Source: Eledone cirrhosa (Eukaryota). Taken from it: 64,000 nucleotides of DNA. Every line of letters begins with the position of its first letter. Positions within the stretch are counted from its first letter, which is position 1. A program made the position numbers and the translations under genes. The notes below the pieces were generated by a model. It ran no database searches and had not been told where the DNA came from. It saw nothing but the letters and a program-made list of their open reading frames with translations. The stretch lies in the NCBI GenBank assembly GCA_964016885.1, contig CAXHJY010000157.1:86629-150628 (forward strand). Direction: 5' to 3'. Below are positions 3,425 to 56,933 of this stretch, one piece after another.

Positions 3425-5005
3425 TTAAACCTTATTTAATGTTGGTCTATATTTTTGAATAAACATATGTTCCTTATGTATTCGCATTTGTTCTGTTGTA
3501 TTGTTAGCGCAAAGGTAAAATGGGAAGACTTGGAATTTGGGTGTCTTATTACTTGCACAAATGTCTAGATATGCACTTAGTGGTATCTGTCTCGTGGTTG
3601 GATCTCGTAATTGTTGGCGATGAACTGTCATTCTGTTTCTGAGTGTGAGTTTAGTTTGTCCTATATAATCTTCATTGCATCCTTTACATTTAATGGCATA
3701 AATTAGATTTTTTGATGAGCAAGTGAAGTGATTTTTTACAGTAAAATTTTGTCCTGATTTAAATGTATACGTGTTGCCTTCAATGAGGTGAGTGCAGGTT
3801 CCACAATTAGAGCGACCACATTTTTTGATACTTGGTTGTGGGTTTGTGGTAGGTAATTTGGCATTGGTGAGTAATGTTTTCAGTGATTTTGGTTGTCTTT
3901 TGCTTTTGATTATTTTGTGTGTTTCAAGGGCTTTTTTCATTCTTGGGTTTTGTTTTAGTAGTGGGATGTTATTGTGAATAGTGTTGTAAGCTTCCGCATT
4001 TCTTGGGTTGTGTGTTGAGATATATGATAGAATATTGGACGTACCTTGAATTTGTTTCTGTTTCCGTAATTCATCAATGCCTATTGCTTTAGCCCTTTCT
4101 ATTCCATTATTTATTAGTAATAGTGGGTACTCTCTCTCAAGTAGAATTTCCTTTAATTCTTGAAGTCTTTTATTTCGCGTTTCATAATTGGAGACAATTG
4201 TGCAAATTCTTCTTGCTAGGTTAAAAGGAATGTTCGTCTTCGTGTGCTTTGGATGGTTGGAGGTGAATATCAGGTATTGTTTGGAATCTGTTGGTTTGTA
4301 GTGTATGTCAGTTTCGATATTTGTGTCTTTTTTTGTGATTAAGATGTCCAGAAATTGGAGTTGATCTTGGCTGTATTCCATTGTGAATTGGATGTGGTTA
4401 TTGATGCCGTTTATTAAGTTTTTGAAATCCTTCAGTTGGTCGAGTGTGTGGGACCAAAGAATGAGGCAATCATCCAAGTAGCGTTTCCAATTCTCTGATA
4501 AATATTTGTGGAAGTTCAATCCGTATTTTGATTTGGACTGTTCATATATCTGGACTTCTAAGTATGCCATGACTAAGTTGGCATAAGTTGGAGCGGCTTT
4601 TGTGCCCATCGGAGTCCCCGATATTTGCTTGTAAGTACTGCCATCGAAATCAAAAAAGTTGTTCTGTAGGATGAATTTTAATCCCTCGGTGATGAAGCTT
4701 TTTTCTATTCTGTCAGGTATCTCATTGGGATATTTCTCTAGCCAGAATCCTATTGCTTCTAGTCCGTATTGGTGTGGGATCGTTGTGTAGAGATTCACTA
4801 CATCGAAAGACACAATAATAGTGTCGTTGTTGACATGTTTGGGAAGGTGGTTTAAGAGGTCCAGATCGTCTGTTACAAGGCTTGGTATGTGTTTCAGTAT
4901 TGGTTTCAGTAGTATGTCTATAAAGTTGCTCAATCTGTGTGTTTCACATTGTGGGCCCGCTACAATTGGTCTTAATTTAAGGTCTGTGGGGTATTGTGTG
5001 TTCAC
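3425..5005 (-). CDS. PLE reverse transcriptase + GIY-YIG endonuclease (Neptune-like, N-terminally truncated)
   Basis: Motifs LRPIV, SFDVVNLYT, GTPMGT, WKRYLDD, FLDI, YKPT; Cys linker CGRSNCGTC; NLIYAIKC..YIGQT..R...H; 526 aa uninterrupted. Confidence 0.95.
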   Translation of the reverse strand: MNTQYPTDLKLRPIVAGPQCETHRLSNFIDILLKPILKHIPSLVTDDLDLLNHLPKHVNNDTIIVSFDVVNLYTTIPHQYGLEAIGFWLEKYPNEIPDRIEKSFITEGLKFILQNNFFDFDGSTYKQISGTPMGTKAAPTYANLVMAYLEVQIYEQSKSKYGLNFHKYLSENWKRYLDDCLILWSHTLDQLKDFKNLINGINNHIQFTMEYSQDQLQFLDILITKKDTNIETDIHYKPTDSKQYLIFTSNHPKHTKTNIPFNLARRICTIVSNYETRNKRLQELKEILLEREYPLLLINNGIERAKAIGIDELRKQKQIQGTSNILSYISTHNPRNAEAYNTIHNNIPLLKQNPRMKKALETHKIIKSKRQPKSLKTLLTNAKLPTTNPQPSIKKCGRSNCGTCTHLIEGNTYTFKSGQNFTVKNHFTCSSKNLIYAIKCKGCNEDYIGQTKLTLRNRMTVHRQQLRDPTTRQIPLSAYLDICASNKTPKFQVFPFYLCANNTTEQMRIHKEHMFIQKYRPTLNKV

Positions 5006-5064
5006 GCAGGCTGAGGTGGATTGTTTACAGGCATCGTTGATTATTTTACATTTGTGGATCTCAC

Positions 5065-5108
<44 letters not shown>

Positions 5109-5172
5109 CTAAAACGATGCTACACAAGTTTGAATGGCATCGAAACAGGAAGCATTAATCAGGAAGACTAAT

Positions 5173-10550: not shown

Positions 10551-10722
10551 GCAAAAGTTCTATTTAAATTGTTGGGATACAACAAGCAAATATTTTTATA
10601 ACTGATATAAACCACTCAACAAGTATTTGGAGTAAACATACGATATTAACAAATGGAAACTATATTTATAAAACCATAAAATAAATATGGTTTTATAAAT
10701 ATAGTTTCCATTTGTTAATATC

Positions 10723-10725
<3 letters not shown>
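10550..10725. mobile_element. Fold-back pLTR end of the Naiad family at 54185-58373
   Basis: Matches 54185-54310; hairpin of about 40 bp centred near 10680. Confidence 0.75.
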
Positions 10726-10757
<32 letters not shown>

Positions 10758-10803
10758 CTTAATTCAAAATATTAACAAATATAGACATTCGTGTCATCAA
10801 GTG

Positions 10804-10870
10804 TATTTTATTATACATATTTCAAAGGTACTGAGCTGTCTTCAACAGTATGTCCTCATCAGATAAAATA
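10804..10870 (-). ncRNA. Type I hammerhead ribozyme in pLTR
   Basis: tattttat-CTGATGA-ggacatactg...cagtaccttt-GAAA-tatgta-TA-ataaaata. Confidence 0.8.
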
Positions 10871-11269
10871 AGATGATGCATGACATACCCTGACTAAATA
10901 GATGGTTAAAATTCAGTCATGGCAGTGAATAAGATATGACAAAACTCAATATTTATATACCTTAAGATTGAGACATGAGAAAATTACATATACTACAGAG
11001 GGTGCGTGTGAGAAAGCTTATAAAGATACATAATAATAAACAACTACTAATATAATATAAACCTACATAACTGTTAGAGATTCAAATAATTTAAATTATT
11101 GAAGAAAGAAGAAGTGAAGACAGAGAGAAAAACAGAAGAGGAAAAAAGAGAATGACTAGAAGTATAGAATTATCTTATGCACGAAAGCAAAAGAAAATTG
11201 ATTAAGGATAGAGAAAGGAGGAACAAATAAATGTTTATAGTATAAGTATAGGGTTAGGGTTTGATTGCT

Positions 11270-12810
11270 ACAGATGCTGGAGGAGCAAACCATATAACTG
11301 ATTTAGTTCTATTTTTCCCCGATTTATTCACGGTATTGGTATTTATATTTATATTTAAATAATTTTTAAAATCTAGTTTATTTGTGTTAGTCTTATTTTA
11401 TCTGGATTATAATTTAAATTAGTATTATCTATATATTCAATATTATTTTTATAACCTGCCTTATGTAGCGCGTCATTATAGTATCCTGCTTTTTCCTCAA
11501 ATATGGAATTGTTAGCGGATATTCTAGTTATGCGTTTCTGTACACTATGGACTATTGCATTTTTCACGGATTTAGGGTGATTAGAGTAATAGCTAACGTA
11601 ATTTAAGTTTTCATTGGACTTATGGAAAAGGTAATAAACTATTTTTGTACTACTTTCAACTTCTAATTTAAGGTCGTAAATTTTAAAGAATTCAATTATA
11701 GTTTTCTTAACCCTATTTAGTTCTGTATTGCTATGCTTGACAAATCTAAATAAAATATCGTCCCTATAAAAAACTACCGGTAATCTCCGGCAGTTTTCTA
11801 TTTACCATATTTAGGATAAAAATACAAAGAAGATCGGTAACCTGCACAGAGTCCGATGATCCCATGGTAATGTCAAAGTTTCTATTCCGATCTGAACGGG
11901 TCCAATACTCATTGTTAAAATTAATTAGAGTTCTTCTAGCAGTTAATATGATATTGATTTCATCTGCATTTAGATCTGTATGTTTGTAAGCATAAGACAA
12001 AGCCTTATTTAATAGGTTAGGTGTAATACAAGAATAATAACTTGCTATGTCCATTTGAATGAATTTGTGATTTTTCTTATATTCTATATTTTTAAACCAG
12101 TCAATTACTTCATTAGTGTCCTTCCATAAGCTCAATTTTGACTTCAATTTCAGAGTTAGTAAAATTCTGTCAATAATATTCTTACTGATTACTCCAATAT
12201 CCCATTTAGATGGAGCTATTAGTCTAACGGGCAGGTCTTACTCAAAGTTTCTCTTGTGATCCTTAAAATTTATCCTCGGCTGTCTAGGTATAAAAGGCTC
12301 TGTTCTTCCTTCAATTCCAAGTTTGGCTATTAATTTAAACGCGTCATTATTGATGTCTATAAGATCTTCGGCCGGGGCTTTTCTGTAATTTTTTCGCAGT
12401 TCTTTTAAAATTAAATCATTATATTCAGTTTTATCCATCCCATATAAGGTGTTGGTTTTGTCTGACTTAACCAATATTTTATTAACTTTTTTAAAATCCA
12501 AGATTTGTTCCTTCAGAGTTCTAAGGTATGGTGACCTTTCGATGGGGTTTTCTTGAATTTAATCTTCTTTAGTATATTAAGCATTTCGGTTTCAAAATCC
12601 TCCAGGAGTGTGTTGTATGGAGGATTTTTTCTAGATTTAAAGATGGTTTCGAAATAATTGTTGTTGCTTTTCCTTTTTGCTTCTTTGTTTTCGAAATGAA
12701 ATGCACGCCATCTCACTCTTCTTATAAAATATTTGTGTTGCTCAATGAGCTTCCTCGTGTATTCCTCATTCGATGGTATAGGTACATCCTTGAGAGATGT
12801 TGGGAACGTG
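11270..12810 (-). pseudogene. Naiad-type PLE RT ORF, frameshifted, endonuclease part deleted
   Basis: N-terminus SLKDVPIPS..Y..KLI..RRVRWRAFHF; KSDKT; FIQMDIASYY; FDITMGSSDS; YRDD (tatagggacgat near 11757-11768); SNHP; ends at WFAPP. Confidence 0.9.
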
Positions 12811-12860
12811 AAGAATTCAATTAATTATTAAATTTGTAATCTATTGTAGAGAAAGCGCTC

Positions 12861-14795
12861 AACCTGCTGGGAGCTAGGTATGTTTAAAGGTTAAACAAGG
12901 TTCAATGAATAAATCAATGAATAAAGTTTTACAATAGATTAGAAGCAATCCACAGAAATGGTTTTCCGGAGTTATTAATATTAGTTCAAAATATTAAGAA
13001 ATATAGACATTCGTGTGATCAAGTATATTTTATTGTATAACCCTAACGATAACTCTAACCCTAACACTAACACTAACCCTAAACTGCTGAGAGCTAGATA
13101 TATTTAAAGGTTAAACAAAGTTCAATGAATAAATCAATGAATAAAGTTTTACAATAGATTAGAAGCAATCCACAGTTATGGTTTTCCGGAGTTATAAATA
13201 TTAGTTCAAAATATTAACAAATATAGACATTCGTGTGATCAAGTATATTTTATTATATAACACTAACACCAACACTAACCCTAACCCTAAGCCTAACCCT
13301 AACCCTACACTAACCCTAACCCTAACCCTAATCCTAACCCGAAACCTAAAACCAACCCTAGCCCTAACTCTAACCCTAACCCTAACCCTAACCCTAATCC
13401 TAACCTGCTAGGAGCTAGATATATTTAAAGGTTATACAAGGTTCAATGAATAAATCAATGAATAAAGTTTTACAATAGATTAGAAGCAATCCACAGATAT
13501 GGTTTTGCGGAGTTATTAATATTAGTTCAAAATATTAACAAATATAGACATTCGTGTGATCAAGTATATTTTATTATATAAAACTAACACAAACCCTAAC
13601 CCGAACCCTAACACTAACACCAACACTAACCCTAACCCTAACCCTAAACCTAACCCTAACCATAAACCTAACCCTAACCCTAACCCTAACCCTATCCCTA
13701 ACCCTAACTCTAAGCCTAAGCCTAAACCTAACCATAACCATAACCATAACCCTAACCCTAACCCAAACCCTAACCTGCTGGAAGCTAGATATATTTAAAG
13801 GTTAAACAAGGTTCAATGAATAAATCAATGAATACAGTTTTACGATAGATTAGAAGCAATCCACAGATATGGTTTTCAGGAGTTATTAATATTAGTTCCA
13901 AATATTAACAAATATAGACATTCGTGTGATCAATTATATTTTATTATATAACCCTAACCCTAACCCTGACCCTAACCCTAACCCTAACTCTAACCCTAAA
14001 CCTAACCCTAACCTAACCTAACCCGCTGGGCGCTAGATATATTTAAAGGTTATACAAGGTTCAATGAATAAATCAATGAATAAAGTTTTACAATAGATTA
14101 GAAGCAATCCACAGTTATGGTTTTCCGGTGTTATTAATATTAGTTCCAAATATTAACAAATATAGACATTCGTGTTATCAAGTATATTTTATTATATAAC
14201 CCTAACCCTAACCCTAACCCTATCCCTAACCCTAACCTGCTGGGAGCTAGATATATTTAAAGGTTAAACAAGGTTCAATGAATAAATCAATGAATAAAGT
14301 TTTACAATAGATTAGAAGCAATCCACGGTGAATGGTTTTCCTGAGTTATTAATATTAGTTCAAAATATTAACAAATATAGACATTCGTGTTATCAAGTAT
14401 ATTTTATTATATAACCCTAACCCTAAACCTAACCATAACCATAACCCTAACCCTAACCCTAACCCTAACCTGCTGGGAGCTAGATATATTTAAAGTTTAT
14501 ACAAGGTTCAATGAATAAATCAATGAATAAAGTTTTACAATAGATTAGAAGCAATCCACAGTAAATGGTTTCCGGAGTTATTAATATTAGTTCAAAATAT
14601 TAATAAATATAGACATTCGTGTTATCAAGTATATTTTATTATATAACCCTAACCCTAACCCAACCCAACCGCAAACCTAACCCTAACCCCAAACCTAACC
14701 CTAAACTTAACCCAAACCCTAAACCCTAACCCTAAACCTTAACCCCAACCCAACCCTAACCCTAACCCTAACCTTAACGCTAACCCTAACCCTAA
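12861..14795. repeat. Array of seven ~177-bp pLTR units alternating with (TAACCC)n telomeric-type tracts
   Basis: Units start at about 12861, 13083, 13403, 13774, 14022, 14235 and 14469; tracts of roughly 40-190 bp follow each; the unit is the reverse complement of 16739-16899 plus tctagctcccagcaggtt. Confidence 0.95.
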
Positions 14796-14924
14796 TAATC
14801 TGTATTTATTTAAGATATGATTAATGTTGGATTAAGGGTTCTACATAAACATATAAACTGTTAACATGATCTTTTGATGATTATGTATATCATTTGATTG
14901 TTTAAATACATTTAATTTTTCGGG

Positions 14925-15965
14925 GTTTATTGTATTTTTAAATTATATAGCTTATATGTTTGACTATTATATGGAATCGTAAACCATTCATTTATTTATT
15001 TTGAATATGTTGTTTTAAGATTCAAGATGTTTGATTTATATATTTATGGTATATGTGTCGTACACGATCCTAGTCGACTAATTTTTCCACTTAACTTGAT
15101 GTAAAACTTTATTTATAACACTATTAACAGTAATTGTATTTATTATATGTATATAATTGACTAATATCGTCTTAAACTTTAAACAGTATACTCTGTATGT
15201 ATTTAGACAAATGTGTATATCTAGTTTAATAATATCCGTTTTAAGTACATTTATATGGCCTTTGGATACTTAGGGCATTCTAGTTTTATAATTGTTAATT
15301 ATTTTCTAAATTATATAATGATTATTTTTTAATAATCTTTTTATATAATTAAATTTGGATTACCTTTGGGTTGATGAAAATCTTAAGTCTTTTCTTTTTC
15401 ATGTTTGCAAACACATTAGATATGATATTATACTATAATAGAAATCCTTTAAAATTGTCTTGTATTTTTTTAATTATATAGCTTATATATTTGACACGTA
15501 TAGGATCGCAAACCATTCATTTATTTATTTTGAATCTGTGTTTTATGATTCATGAAGTTTGATTTGTATATTTATAGTATATATGTATTACATGATCCTA
15601 GTTGAATAATTTTTTTTTAATATAATACTTGACGTAAAACTTTATTTTTAACACTATTAACAGTAATTATATATATTATATATAACTGACTAATATCGTC
15701 TTAAACTTTAAACAATGTACTCTTTGTATAAACTTAGACAAATGAGTATATCTAGTTTAATAATATCCTTTTTAAGTACACTTATATGGCCTTTGGATAC
15801 TTAAGGGCATTCTAATTTTAATTTTAAATTTATAATTGTAATTATTTTCTAAATTATATAATGATTATTTTTTAATATAAAACTTCTTTAATATAAAAAA
15901 ATGTTTTTGTTATAATTTAATTTGGATTACCTTCGGGATGAAGAAAATCTTAAGTATACTATAAT
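14925..15965 (+). repeat. Diverged ~530-bp tandem duplication in the putative PLE 3' UTR
   Basis: 14930-15450 repeated at 15460-15965 (aaccattcatttatttattttgaat; ggcctttggatactta; tttggattacctt). Confidence 0.8.
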
Positions 15966-16692
15966 ATAAATACTTATACATTTTATAGTCAGAAATCTTA
16001 TGTCTTTAGATTAATTCACTATTTCTAACTAACATAAAGATTCGAAATTTAACGGTCATCCGGATGCGCTGGGATATATATATAATTGATTAATTGGCTA
16101 TTTCTTATTAACTTAAGGATTCGAAAATAAACCGTCATATAACTACACCCAGATATATATTTGATATTTGATTAATTGATTATTTCTAGATAATTTAACG
16201 ATTCGAAATTAATCATTCACAAAGCTATGCCCGAATATATATTTATATATATATATATTTGCATCATCTAATTATGCACTATTTATGAACGACAATACAA
16301 ATCTCCCTCCCTATGTGTTATACTATAAAAATTTATTTTTTCCTCCTTTCTCTATCCTTAATCAATTTTCTTTTGCTTTCGTGCATAAGCTAATTCTATA
16401 CTTCTAGTCATTCTCTTTTTTCCTCTTCTGTTTCTCTCTCTGTCTTTCACTTCTTCTGTCTTCAATAATTTAAATTATTTAAATCTCTAACAGTTATGTA
16501 GGTTTACATTATATTAGTAGTTGTTTATTATTATGTATCTTTATAAGCTTTCTCACACGCACCCTCTGTATTATATGTAATTTTCTCATGTCTCAAACTT
16601 AAGGTACATAAATATTGAGTGTTGTCCTATCTTATTCACTGCCATGACTTAATGTTAACCATCTACTTAGTCAAGGTATGTCATGCATCATC

Positions 16693-16751
16693 TTTTTTAT
16701 CTGATGAAGACGTACTGTTGAAGATAGCTCTGAAATATGTATAATAAAATA
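16693..16751 (+). ncRNA. Type I hammerhead ribozyme in pLTR (stem II has a small deletion relative to the 10804 copy)
   Basis: ttttttat-CTGATGA-agacgtactgttgaagatagctct-GAAA-tatgta-TA-ataaaata. Confidence 0.75.
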
Positions 16752-16956
16752 TACTTGATCACACGAATGTCTATATTTGTTAATATTTTGAATTAATATT
16801 AATAACTCCGGAAAACCATAACTTTGGAGTGCTTCTAATCTCTTGTAAAACTTTATTCATTGATTTATTCATTGAACCTTGTTTAACCTTTAAATATATA
16901 TATATATATTTATCTAAATAAAGGATTATGAGTTCATGCAATTGACTTATGTTTCG

Positions 16957-16997
<41 letters not shown>

Positions 16998-17088
16998 AAT
17001 GTAAGCTATCGCCGTATTTTGACTAAAGAAATTATTTAGCCTGATAGTGGGGTTAAGAACCCTCGTAGAAATGGAAAAAGATGAGTAT

Positions 17089-17161
17089 TGACGTACAAGG
17101 GAGTCGACCCCACATCTTTGGTTATCCGGACCACTGTGCTACCATTTACACCAACACATCA
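17089..17161 (-). other. tRNA-like sequence (pseudo-tRNA or SINE head) inside an inverted repeat
   Basis: tgatgtg..tggtgtaaatggtagcac..tggt ccggata acca..gtggggtcgactccc..tacgtca; acceptor, D, anticodon and T arms are imperfect. Confidence 0.5.
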
Positions 17162-17310
17162 CCTGTCTTTTTCCATTCCTAAATAATTTCTTTAATTTCT
17201 TTAGTCAAAATACGGCGAAAGCTTACATTTCTAATAATTTCAAACCCACTCGCTGTTTCGAAAATATTCTTACTTGATATATATATATGTATATATAAAA
17301 GAGCGAGAGA

Positions 17311-54826: not shown

Positions 54827-55744
54827 GCTCTAGTATTAATGTAGAGAGAGATATATGTGGTTAGGAGAGAAAACGCCGTTATATAGAGAGAAAAGAAAAA
54901 TATCCAGACATAAACGAGGCAGATTTAAAACACTATGTTTCATCAATGTAAAAATATCAATTCGTATAAATCAGGCATTATAATGTAAATATCAGTATTC
55001 ATGAATGAGACACGTATCAATAATGTGTGAAAAATAATGATCATATGTCTAGTTTAAAATTCCTAGGTTTATATCAGAGTTGAGGTAAAATAGAAGGTTA
55101 TCCCAGATTCGATACTATAGACATCCATGTGAATTTACGTGATCAGCTCTGCAAATTCCTATTTCACACGAAAACATTCTCATTGTGCTATAAAAATTCT
55201 AGTATACATATATGTGTACATACACACAAATATATATAGAGTCTACATTAATTTTAACAATACTATTCTTGTCTTTACTCTACATGATTATCGTTCAAGC
55301 ATAGATAGAGAACAGATATCAATATATCAATAAAAATATCAGAAACAAAAAAATAAATAAAAAAACAAAAAAATATTAAAAATAAAAATATTAAAAATAT
55401 TAAAAATAAAAATAAAACATAGTATGCCCCGCAAATCAACCACAGAGATTAATTGACAATATATTGCCAAGTTCGTTATAAGCATCAGAGTCAAAAGCAA
55501 ACAAAACCAAAAATTATTTACCAAATCCTGTCTAGCAGAAAACATTCCAAAAGTTTAGGATACCCATTTGATCTACAGATGGTCTTATATTTAATATAGA
55601 AGTTTATCTAGTGTAAAATTTATTCGATATATTTGGAGCATCAGCTTTTAGGGTAGTTTAATTATTCATGAAGAATGTTTAAAAAAAACATTTGAATATG
55701 ACCTGCGGGCCTATTTTTAATCAATTCGCTGCATAGGAAAAAAC

Positions 55745-56933
55745 CCGGTGCTACCGGAGGTTTATATAGAGATGACATGCTTTTACTTAATGAAAATAAT
55801 AACTCTGAACTAAATAGAAAAAGAAAACAAATTACACAATTTTTTAATTACTTTAATCTAAAAATAGAAATTGAGAATAACCATAGAATAGTCAATTTCC
55901 TCGATGTAACATTAAATCTCAACACATGTCTTCACTATCCATTTCACAAGTTGAATGAAAACTTAAACTATGTCAGCTTTAACTCTAACCACCCCAGATA
56001 TGTTAAAAATACTATAGTAAACTCTGTTCAAAAACGTATCTCTAGAATCTCATCTAATAAAAAGATTTTCGACGAAAAAGCCCAGTATTACAATGAAGCG
56101 TTAGCTAGAGCAGGATATAGTGATAAAATTATGTACATAGATAATAATAGACAAACTAACCAAAATAACAACAATTTTAATTACGGCAACAACTTTAACA
56201 ACTATAATAGAAAGCATTACAATAATTCCAAAAGCCAAAAAAGAAATAGAACTAGGAATATAATATGGTTTGCCCCCCCTTTCTCACTAAACATTAAAAC
56301 CCACATCGCTAAACTATTTTTAATGCTCTTGATAATCGCTTCCCTAGAACACATAGGTATCACTCAATTTTCAATAGACATACTATAAAATTAACCTACT
56401 CATCCACTAAAAATTTAGCACAAAATATTAATAGAATAAATAATAGGAATTTAAAACCTAGCCAAAATACCGATAATAGCATAAATAATATCCAAGTTAA
56501 CAAATGTAACTGTAGAGATAGATCTAAATGTCCGTTAAATAACAATTGCTTAGTTAAAAATATAATATACAACTGTAATGTTAAAACGGACTTAAATTCT
56601 TTTAACTATGTTGGTTCCACCTCGACAGAATTTAAACTTCGCTATAATAACCACAAGAATTCTTTCACAGATCCAAGCAAAAAATCTTCAACATCACTAT
56701 CAGGCTTACTATGGCAACTTAGGCATGATAACGTTGGATATTCGACGGCTTGGAATATAGTCTCAAGAGGGATTCCTTTTAATTCATCCTCTGAGACATG
56801 TGACCTCTGCGCGGAGGAGATATTCTTTATACTAAAATCTAAAAATTCCCTTAATTTACGGACAAATTTATTCAGTTGCTGCAGACATAGATTGAACTCA
56901 ACTTTTAAATATAAATATAAATTTAAAATGTAG
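55745..56933 (+). pseudogene. Naiad-type RT C-terminus + GIY-YIG, 5'-truncated, frameshift near 56320
   Basis: GGLYRDD, NFLDVTL, SNHP, WFAPPFS, then in another frame CNCRDRSKCPLNNNC..IIYNC..YVGSTSTEFKLRYNNH..CDLC..E..CRH. Confidence 0.9.

Follow-up and report, generated by a model that had tools for sequence, protein, structure and literature searches.

Telomeric repeats in register with both cDNA ends of a Penelope-like element insertion, and an adjoining pLTR-telomere array, in Eledone cirrhosa

The stretch of Eledone cirrhosa DNA analysed here, hereafter the window, comprises 64,000 nucleotides of assembly GCA_964016885.1 (contig CAXHJY010000157.1, positions 86,629 to 150,628), and all coordinates below refer to it. 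It contains an insertion of a Penelope-like element (PLE) in which seven copies of the element's pLTR, each followed by a degenerate telomeric tract, lie between two oppositely oriented portions of the element. The window constitutes the end of its contig (C184, 150,628 bp), and a telomeric array was sought at the start of this contig and at the end of the window, where none was found. The insertion is composed of the following parts.

10724..10753, no strand: (TA)n run of the target, bounding the insertion on the left
10754..11253, minus strand: arm A', the 3' end of the element, 5'-truncated and bearing the short terminus; the plus strand is its cDNA strand and ends TAGGG
10804..10870, minus strand: type I hammerhead motif read from the sequence, with stem I TATTTTAT/ATAAAATA, CTGATGA, GAAA and a predicted cut after AUA
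11254..11259, plus strand: one TTAGGG inserted where ~2.4 kb are deleted internally, in register over 5 nt on the left (TAGGG) and 2 nt on the right (TT)
11260..12863, minus strand: piece C, the 5' part of a broken Hydra-type RT ORF (RWR, DKT, RT core, IWFAPP)
12864..13037, minus strand: unit 1, the 5' pLTR, which starts 4 nt upstream of the predicted hammerhead cut and extends to the 5' UTR
13038..13083, minus strand: telomeric tract 1, 46 bp, G-rich on the minus strand
13084..13257, minus strand: unit 2
13258..13404, minus strand: tract 2, 147 bp, with a three-variant string in common with tract 3
13405..13578, minus strand: unit 3
13579..13774, minus strand: tract 3, 196 bp, with strings in common with tracts 2, 5 and 6
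13775..13948, minus strand: unit 4
13949..14022, minus strand: tract 4, 74 bp
14023..14196, minus strand: unit 5, identical to a short-read contig over 14077-14175
14197..14236, minus strand: tract 5, 40 bp
14237..14411, minus strand: unit 6, 175 bp
14412..14469, minus strand: tract 6, 58 bp
14470..14643, minus strand: unit 7
14644..14795, minus strand: tract 7, ~152 bp, in register with the cDNA 3' end of arm B (TTAG, 4 nt)
14796..16902, plus strand: arm B, an inverted, 5'-truncated copy with 3' UTR and long terminus, which ends in (TA)n and has the minus strand as its cDNA strand
16693-16751: hammerhead motif of arm B

The seven units (12864-14643) are each 174 bp long, save unit 6, and every one of them is followed by a degenerate (TAACCC)n tract, the breakpoints being identical at all seven unit-to-tract joints and at all six tract-to-unit joints. 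Unit 1 runs on into the ORF, reading CAGGTTGAGCG in sense, while units 2-7 stop at the GGTT that is common to the unit and the telomeric repeat. The array sits between the minus-strand ORF piece and the inverted plus-strand copy, which begins immediately at the end of tract 7. In these respects the original prediction, made from the letters of the window, was borne out: the array of units and telomeric tracts, the continuity of unit 1 with the 5' region of the ORF, the position at the junction of the two copies, the shared GGTT, the variant string of tracts 2 and 3, the PLE-telomere junction and the nature of the unit as a 5' pLTR were all recovered. Any two units show 7-15 differences over 174 sites (mean 5.5%). 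Read support for the array is partial, the listed short-read pieces reaching no unit-tract joint since repeats were skipped. Unit 5 is matched over 99 nt with zero mismatches by a short-read contig of depth 17.7, from a sample that is possibly the assembled individual.

Judged by its motifs, the element that bears the array belongs to the Hydra clade of PLEs rather than to Naiad, as which it had been labelled at first. Hydra elements are distinguished by RWK and DKT motifs, a CxCX5C linker, a GIY-YIG endonuclease at the C-terminus, a hammerhead and (TA)n targets (Craig et al., PMC8557442). The ORF in the window contains RRVRWRAF, KSDKTN and IWFAPP, the first two of which correspond, in a comparison by eye rather than by tree, to RRMRWKAF and SDKTN in the N-terminus of Hydra-1_Obim (supplement to PMC8557442). 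The part with the CxCX5C linker and GIY-YIG is missing from the window copy, and a relative with an open frame (L055) carries CNCRNRSNC, LVY...YIG, CNLC and CLH, that is, a CxCX5C linker, a C-terminal GIY-YIG without CCHH, and near-terminal CxxC and CxH. Pfam did not recognise the Hydra ORF pieces. The core of a type I hammerhead occurs in 91 of 123 family copies, with 8 of 8 stem I pairs in 81, which together with the (TA)n targets agrees with Hydra; this ribozyme is predicted as a sequence motif and was recovered neither by Rfam nor by an MFE fold. Naiad, on the contrary, is expected to have an N-terminal GIY-YIG endonuclease, a DKA motif, a CxC linker before the RT and no canonical hammerhead. 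The relatives have their endonuclease at the C-terminus, the translation has DKT and no CxC before the RT, and there is no room for an N-terminal domain, because the ORF begins ~45 nt past the unit.

The unit belongs to an extensive repeat family (2150 candidates, of which 40 were scored), the elements of which measure ~4.7 kb and have a long 3' UTR. Since the predicted hammerhead cut lies 4 nt inside the 5' end of the unit, the units would be devoid of the ribozyme. At the family loci L014, L025-L028, L030 and L080 the 5' ends are concentrated at 14-19 nt upstream of the cut, with six at +19, and often take the form of stem II fold-backs. The window also holds another PLE, a 564-aa open frame with RVT_1 and with GIY-YIG at its C-terminus (3425-5119, minus strand), as well as a second, fragmented Hydra-like ORF (55700-56930, plus strand) that is 71% alike to 11420-11627.

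The two arms face one another, A' with the short and B with the long terminus. Piece C lacks the endonuclease part and has a decayed start codon, and between 11253 and 11260 some 2.4 kb of the element, endonuclease included, are missing; the natural flanks of this deletion were taken from relatives and its size from one of them, L047. The deletion is occupied by the single TTAGGG at 11254-11259, a second telomeric insert that was absent from the original prediction. The segment 14796-16317 was considered as captured subtelomeric (TERRA-like) DNA, which is ruled out, as it is the 3' UTR of the family. A', C and B fall into a single subfamily. In a set of 39 sequences A' and B, which differ by 4.9%, form a group of weak support (0.65), and the distances of C, B and A' to the same relative, L047, are 4.9%, 4.6% and 6.1%. 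By this grouping and these comparable distances, A', B and piece C are likely to derive from one insertion event. An opposite short-end arm is found, in the fetched stretch, at 19 of 32 long-end loci of the family, and purified PLE protein was reported to cut and extend both strands, giving two start sites (PMC11167929). Neither an empty site nor a haplotig or paralogue of the insertion was found, its flank being single-copy in the assembly, and hence we infer the timing of the telomere addition at insertion. Small hairpin inserts occupy the (TA)n flanks of the insertion at 10638-10726 and 16991-17236.

The relationships among units and tracts point to copying of the array at the DNA level. 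Two variants, one present in 0 and the other in 1 of 50 other copies, are common to all seven units and missing from arm B. Further variants, each in 0 of 50 other copies, define the unit sets {3,5,7}, {5,6,7} and {4,5}. Three-way sharing occurs at four sites, two of which also vary in the family, and is improbable under a star model (P<1/20000 with uniform rates, 0.005 with family rates), while two-way sharing, taken by itself, fails to reach significance with family rates (P=0.44). Among the tracts, 2 of 21 pairs possess a common run with three variant hexamers, which was matched in 0 of 3000 shuffles. Since variants and strings are shared among subsets, units and tracts were copied mutually as DNA, and the incompatible unit subsets call for exchange between units. 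Moreover, the array appears about as old as the insertion (units 5.5% versus arms 4.9%), and because the units are as divergent as the arms, most of the expansion would have taken place soon after insertion. The idea of an independent join for each unit is therefore largely given up, the locus being unique and its parts related by DNA-level copying. With regard to the origin of the first extra module, a DNA slip, further telomerase addition or an RT jump may each be compatible, and the first one or two modules may stem from alternation of the RT between templates. The tracts diverge from the perfect repeat by 8.5% (10-11% in tracts 1-3), mostly by G to T, with a variant spectrum resembling that of large interstitial blocks of the same genome; a donor search with an exact 31-nt tract variant string gave one match in the assembly, the window itself.

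The junctions of element and telomeric repeat, with family copies taken as the ancestral state, are characterized by a common register. In A' the cDNA strand carries the natural sequence up to TAGGG, followed by TTAGGG; in B the natural end of this strand is TTAG, followed by GGTTAGGG; and on the sense strand of the unit the end is GGTT, followed by AGGG. The three G-rich tract starts thus show in-register microhomology of 5, 4 and 4 nt, matches that have a background of 0.57%, 2.3% and 1.4% of positions (jointly ~2e-6), whereas the far ends of the tracts show 2 and 0 nt. Short interstitial telomeric sequences (ITS) made by telomerase are recognised in the literature by 3' ends that lie in register (PMC2246262, PMC7215372), and the three starts show this mark. 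Both inward cDNA 3' ends bear TTAGGG in register, which is the ordinary polarity of telomerase. A polarity opposite to that of known telomere-associated PLEs had been predicted; this holds relative to the ORF piece but not relative to arm B, the neighbour of the tract, where the G-rich strand extends the cDNA 3' end. Microhomology is, however, blind to the direction of synthesis, and C-rich synthesis with end joining at 4-5 nt would also fit.

With respect to recurrence, three unit-telomere junction patterns match the 3-Gb assembly in the window alone (5 of 5, 3 of 3 and 4 of 4 matches), so that a dedicated unit-telomere cassette family was rejected and the original notion of a cassette or recurrent system is not supported. 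No telomeric run of at least 10 nt was present at any of ~230 other 5' ends (110 other loci, 516 kb, with overlap in a few places). Two 10-nt telomere-like runs in family loci are separated from the nearest end by 669 and 65 nt, and the second of them falls in the Asn-rich linker of another Hydra family. Likewise, of 42 short-ITS loci none coincided with a junction of the array-bearing family, and in 23 stretches, many of them situated entirely within a block, no observed edge of a large block adjoined the family. On the other hand, (TA)n was found joined in register to telomeric repeats at 9 places, versus 0 for the control. One of 44 distinct short-ITS loci, L198 (G000:C12:7334980-7337999, 1171-1707), which came from the search for TA plus telomere, is a two-armed (TA)n insertion with GGGTTAGGGT at its palindrome centre; its arms contain a decayed hammerhead of a second Hydra-type family, found upstream of a Hydra-type ORF in L173. 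Because the repeats of L198 sit between TA runs, a later hairpin break is possible there.

Telomeric repeats occur in several other arrangements. Large degenerate TTAGGG blocks lie far from contig ends on C1 (208.56 and 217.83-217.97 Mb), C2 (9.07, 127.9, 149.05 and 242.1-243.1 Mb) and C3 (150.9, 184.6 and 310.9 Mb), the block at C1 217.83 Mb starting in register from a (TA)n run (L192). Two to five telomeric repeats, in register with TA, occur in or beside (TA)n microsatellites at L194-L197, L200, L239 and L109. A dispersed MITE-like hairpin with internal TTAGGG facing CCCTAA is present at L128, L129, L132, L133, L137, L142, L144, L148, L150, L154, L156 and L162, and at L134 (G000:C9:21538928-21541956) telomeric tracts are interleaved with a T-rich repeat of the TTTTTCGA type.

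The explanation that we consider probable, on balance, is that telomerase capped cDNA ends in the course of a single insertion and that tandem amplification followed. Of the three routes initially proposed, this corresponds to alternation with telomerase while a break was healed, which fits best. One old, two-armed Hydra insertion would have begun with the endonuclease cutting both strands of a (TA)n site, so that both ends could prime cDNA synthesis. The A' cDNA would have stalled after 500 nt, gained one TTAGGG and resumed ~2.4 kb further up the element, proceeding to near the hammerhead cut, while that of B would have stalled after 2.1 kb and gained a longer tract, whereupon the two cDNA ends would have been joined bluntly. 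A first tract-unit-tract module might then have arisen by a slip or by further telomerase addition at the GGTT of unit 1, with slippage or unequal exchange soon raising the module to seven copies and conversion acting later between neighbours. This course of events is favoured by the combined register of the three tract starts, by the in-register (TA)n-telomere joins and by L198, another two-armed insertion with repeats at its centre. Against it stand the end joining that would produce the same microhomology; the equal divergence of the units at an age like that of the arms, indicating a burst that alternation of the RT would also yield; the tracts, which are more degenerate than the age of the units predicts, as capture from a degenerate template would explain; and the lack of telomeric runs at the other 5' ends.

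A rather unlikely alternative places the telomeric repeats after the insertion: an ordinary long palindrome would have broken, possibly as a cruciform, and its ends would have been healed by telomerase or patched from a degenerate block, with no role of retrotransposition. Such blocks, with the variant spectrum of the tracts, exist in the genome; the tracts appear more degenerate than the units; and in L198, too, the repeats occupy the palindrome apex. Nevertheless, two breaks at least 1.8 kb apart would be needed, at positions typical of cDNA truncation, the single match of the 31-nt tract string identifies no donor block outside the window, and little time would remain between insertion and break, because the units are as old as the arms.

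It is likewise unlikely that the PLE RT itself, having reached the RNA 5' end cut by the ribozyme, switched to a telomeric template rich in G (TERRA or a G-overhang, perhaps the one newly made by telomerase on arm B), copied TAACCC, re-annealed through AACC/GGUU to the pLTR RNA and went through this cycle several times. The 5' end of the unit lies 4 nt from the predicted cut without microhomology, as in a template jump, and only 1 of 55 other 5' ends falls within 5 nt of the cut; a single RNA template would furthermore account for the two variants common to all units and for their equal age. However, 10 of 55 ends fall within 20 nt, so that ending near the cut is common, which counts against this cycle, and Poseidon_Ac dispensed with ribozyme cleavage for insertion in vitro (PMC11167929). 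Moreover, variants common to unit subsets and tracts require copying at the DNA level, the tracts are without the common start that a single template end would impose, the insert at 11254, with its G-rich strand in the cDNA, would need a C-rich template, and no second locus emerged from the junction searches of the assembly.

It is very doubtful that the Hydra RT, a relative of the telomerase RT, copied telomerase RNA or another C-rich template into its own cDNA: the TTAGGG at 11254 does lie between two cDNA segments of the same strand and direction, as if the enzyme had stayed on, but long tracts require repeated translocation, a property of telomerase. Least credible is an assembly artefact, as the small size of the contig and the unit-tract joints bridged by none of the listed short-read pieces are opposed by the 7-15 substitutions between units with structured sharing and by unit-5-specific sequence in short-read contigs at a low depth like that of a single locus, in a sample possibly identical to the assembled one.

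On the explanation held probable, the insertion locus is a scar of repair that serves no function in its own right, and owing to its rarity among the other ends and the lack of evident function it is to be regarded as a mechanistic trace, not as a new system. Telomere insertion at repaired breaks is already known; new are the substrate, which consists of the two cDNA ends of a single PLE insertion, and the pLTR-telomere array that arose later. Capping by telomerase would mean that the locus records two cDNA ends capped at once as well as one repeat between cDNA segments, and is thus richer than a plain break scar, and it illustrates how a small telomeric seed can become a mixed satellite. Should telomerase have access to the intermediates of retrotransposition, then the insertion of retroelements gives rise to interstitial telomeric sequence, and the ends of cDNA would compete with telomere healing in the germline. 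In a wider and tentative proposal, which we hold to be possible though less than probable, telomerase and the RT of endonuclease-bearing PLEs exchange DNA 3' ends during retrotransposition, telomerase capping stalled cDNA and the RT either resuming on its RNA behind the added repeat or jumping from the RNA end cut by the ribozyme to the new G-overhang; joints of this kind would be found repeatedly in animals and supply the germline with interstitial telomeric arrays capable of later expansion.

Several known systems resemble the locus in part. Metazoan non-LTR retrozymes also form tandem arrays from PLE pLTRs, with a hammerhead in each unit (bioRxiv 10.64898/2026.07.22.740005), whereas the units of the array start 4 nt before the predicted cut and contain no CTGATGA/GAAA core, which speaks against a retrozyme; starting at the cut without the core, they would be incapable of self-cleavage. 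The Hydra clade (PMC8557442) agrees with the element in the RWK-like and DKT motifs, CxCX5C, the C-terminal GIY-YIG, the hammerhead, (TA)n, the inverted arm and the terminal tail; its members are generally shorter than 3 kb, in distinction to the family described here, and the available sections of that paper describe no telomeric repeats for Hydra. In the literature covered, mostly open-access, no description of telomeric repeats at junctions of endonuclease-bearing PLEs was found.

Athena, Coprina and Terminon elements bear telomeric repeats at their truncated 5' ends, with element pieces interspersed with short tracts, and A' and B show the same capping polarity (PMC6431247, PMC3846280). 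These elements are devoid of an endonuclease and are attached to chromosome ends as a rule, by way of reverse-complement repeats beside the hammerhead (PMC6431247, PMC3846280). The array-bearing family, unlike them, possesses an endonuclease, uses (TA)n as its target, is devoid of such repeats and displays the feature once; membership in this group was rejected on account of the endonuclease and of 3' ends that join (TA)n, the listed copies lying interstitially. A close parallel in terms of the joints is given by short ITS at repaired double-strand breaks, where a 3' end likewise receives TTAGGG in register, with a microhomology of 1-6 nt, and the ends are rejoined, often with deletions or complex rearrangement (PMC2246262, PMC7215372). 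Here, by comparison, the ends are those of retroelement cDNA on both sides of one insertion, and a module of pLTR plus tract has been amplified sevenfold.
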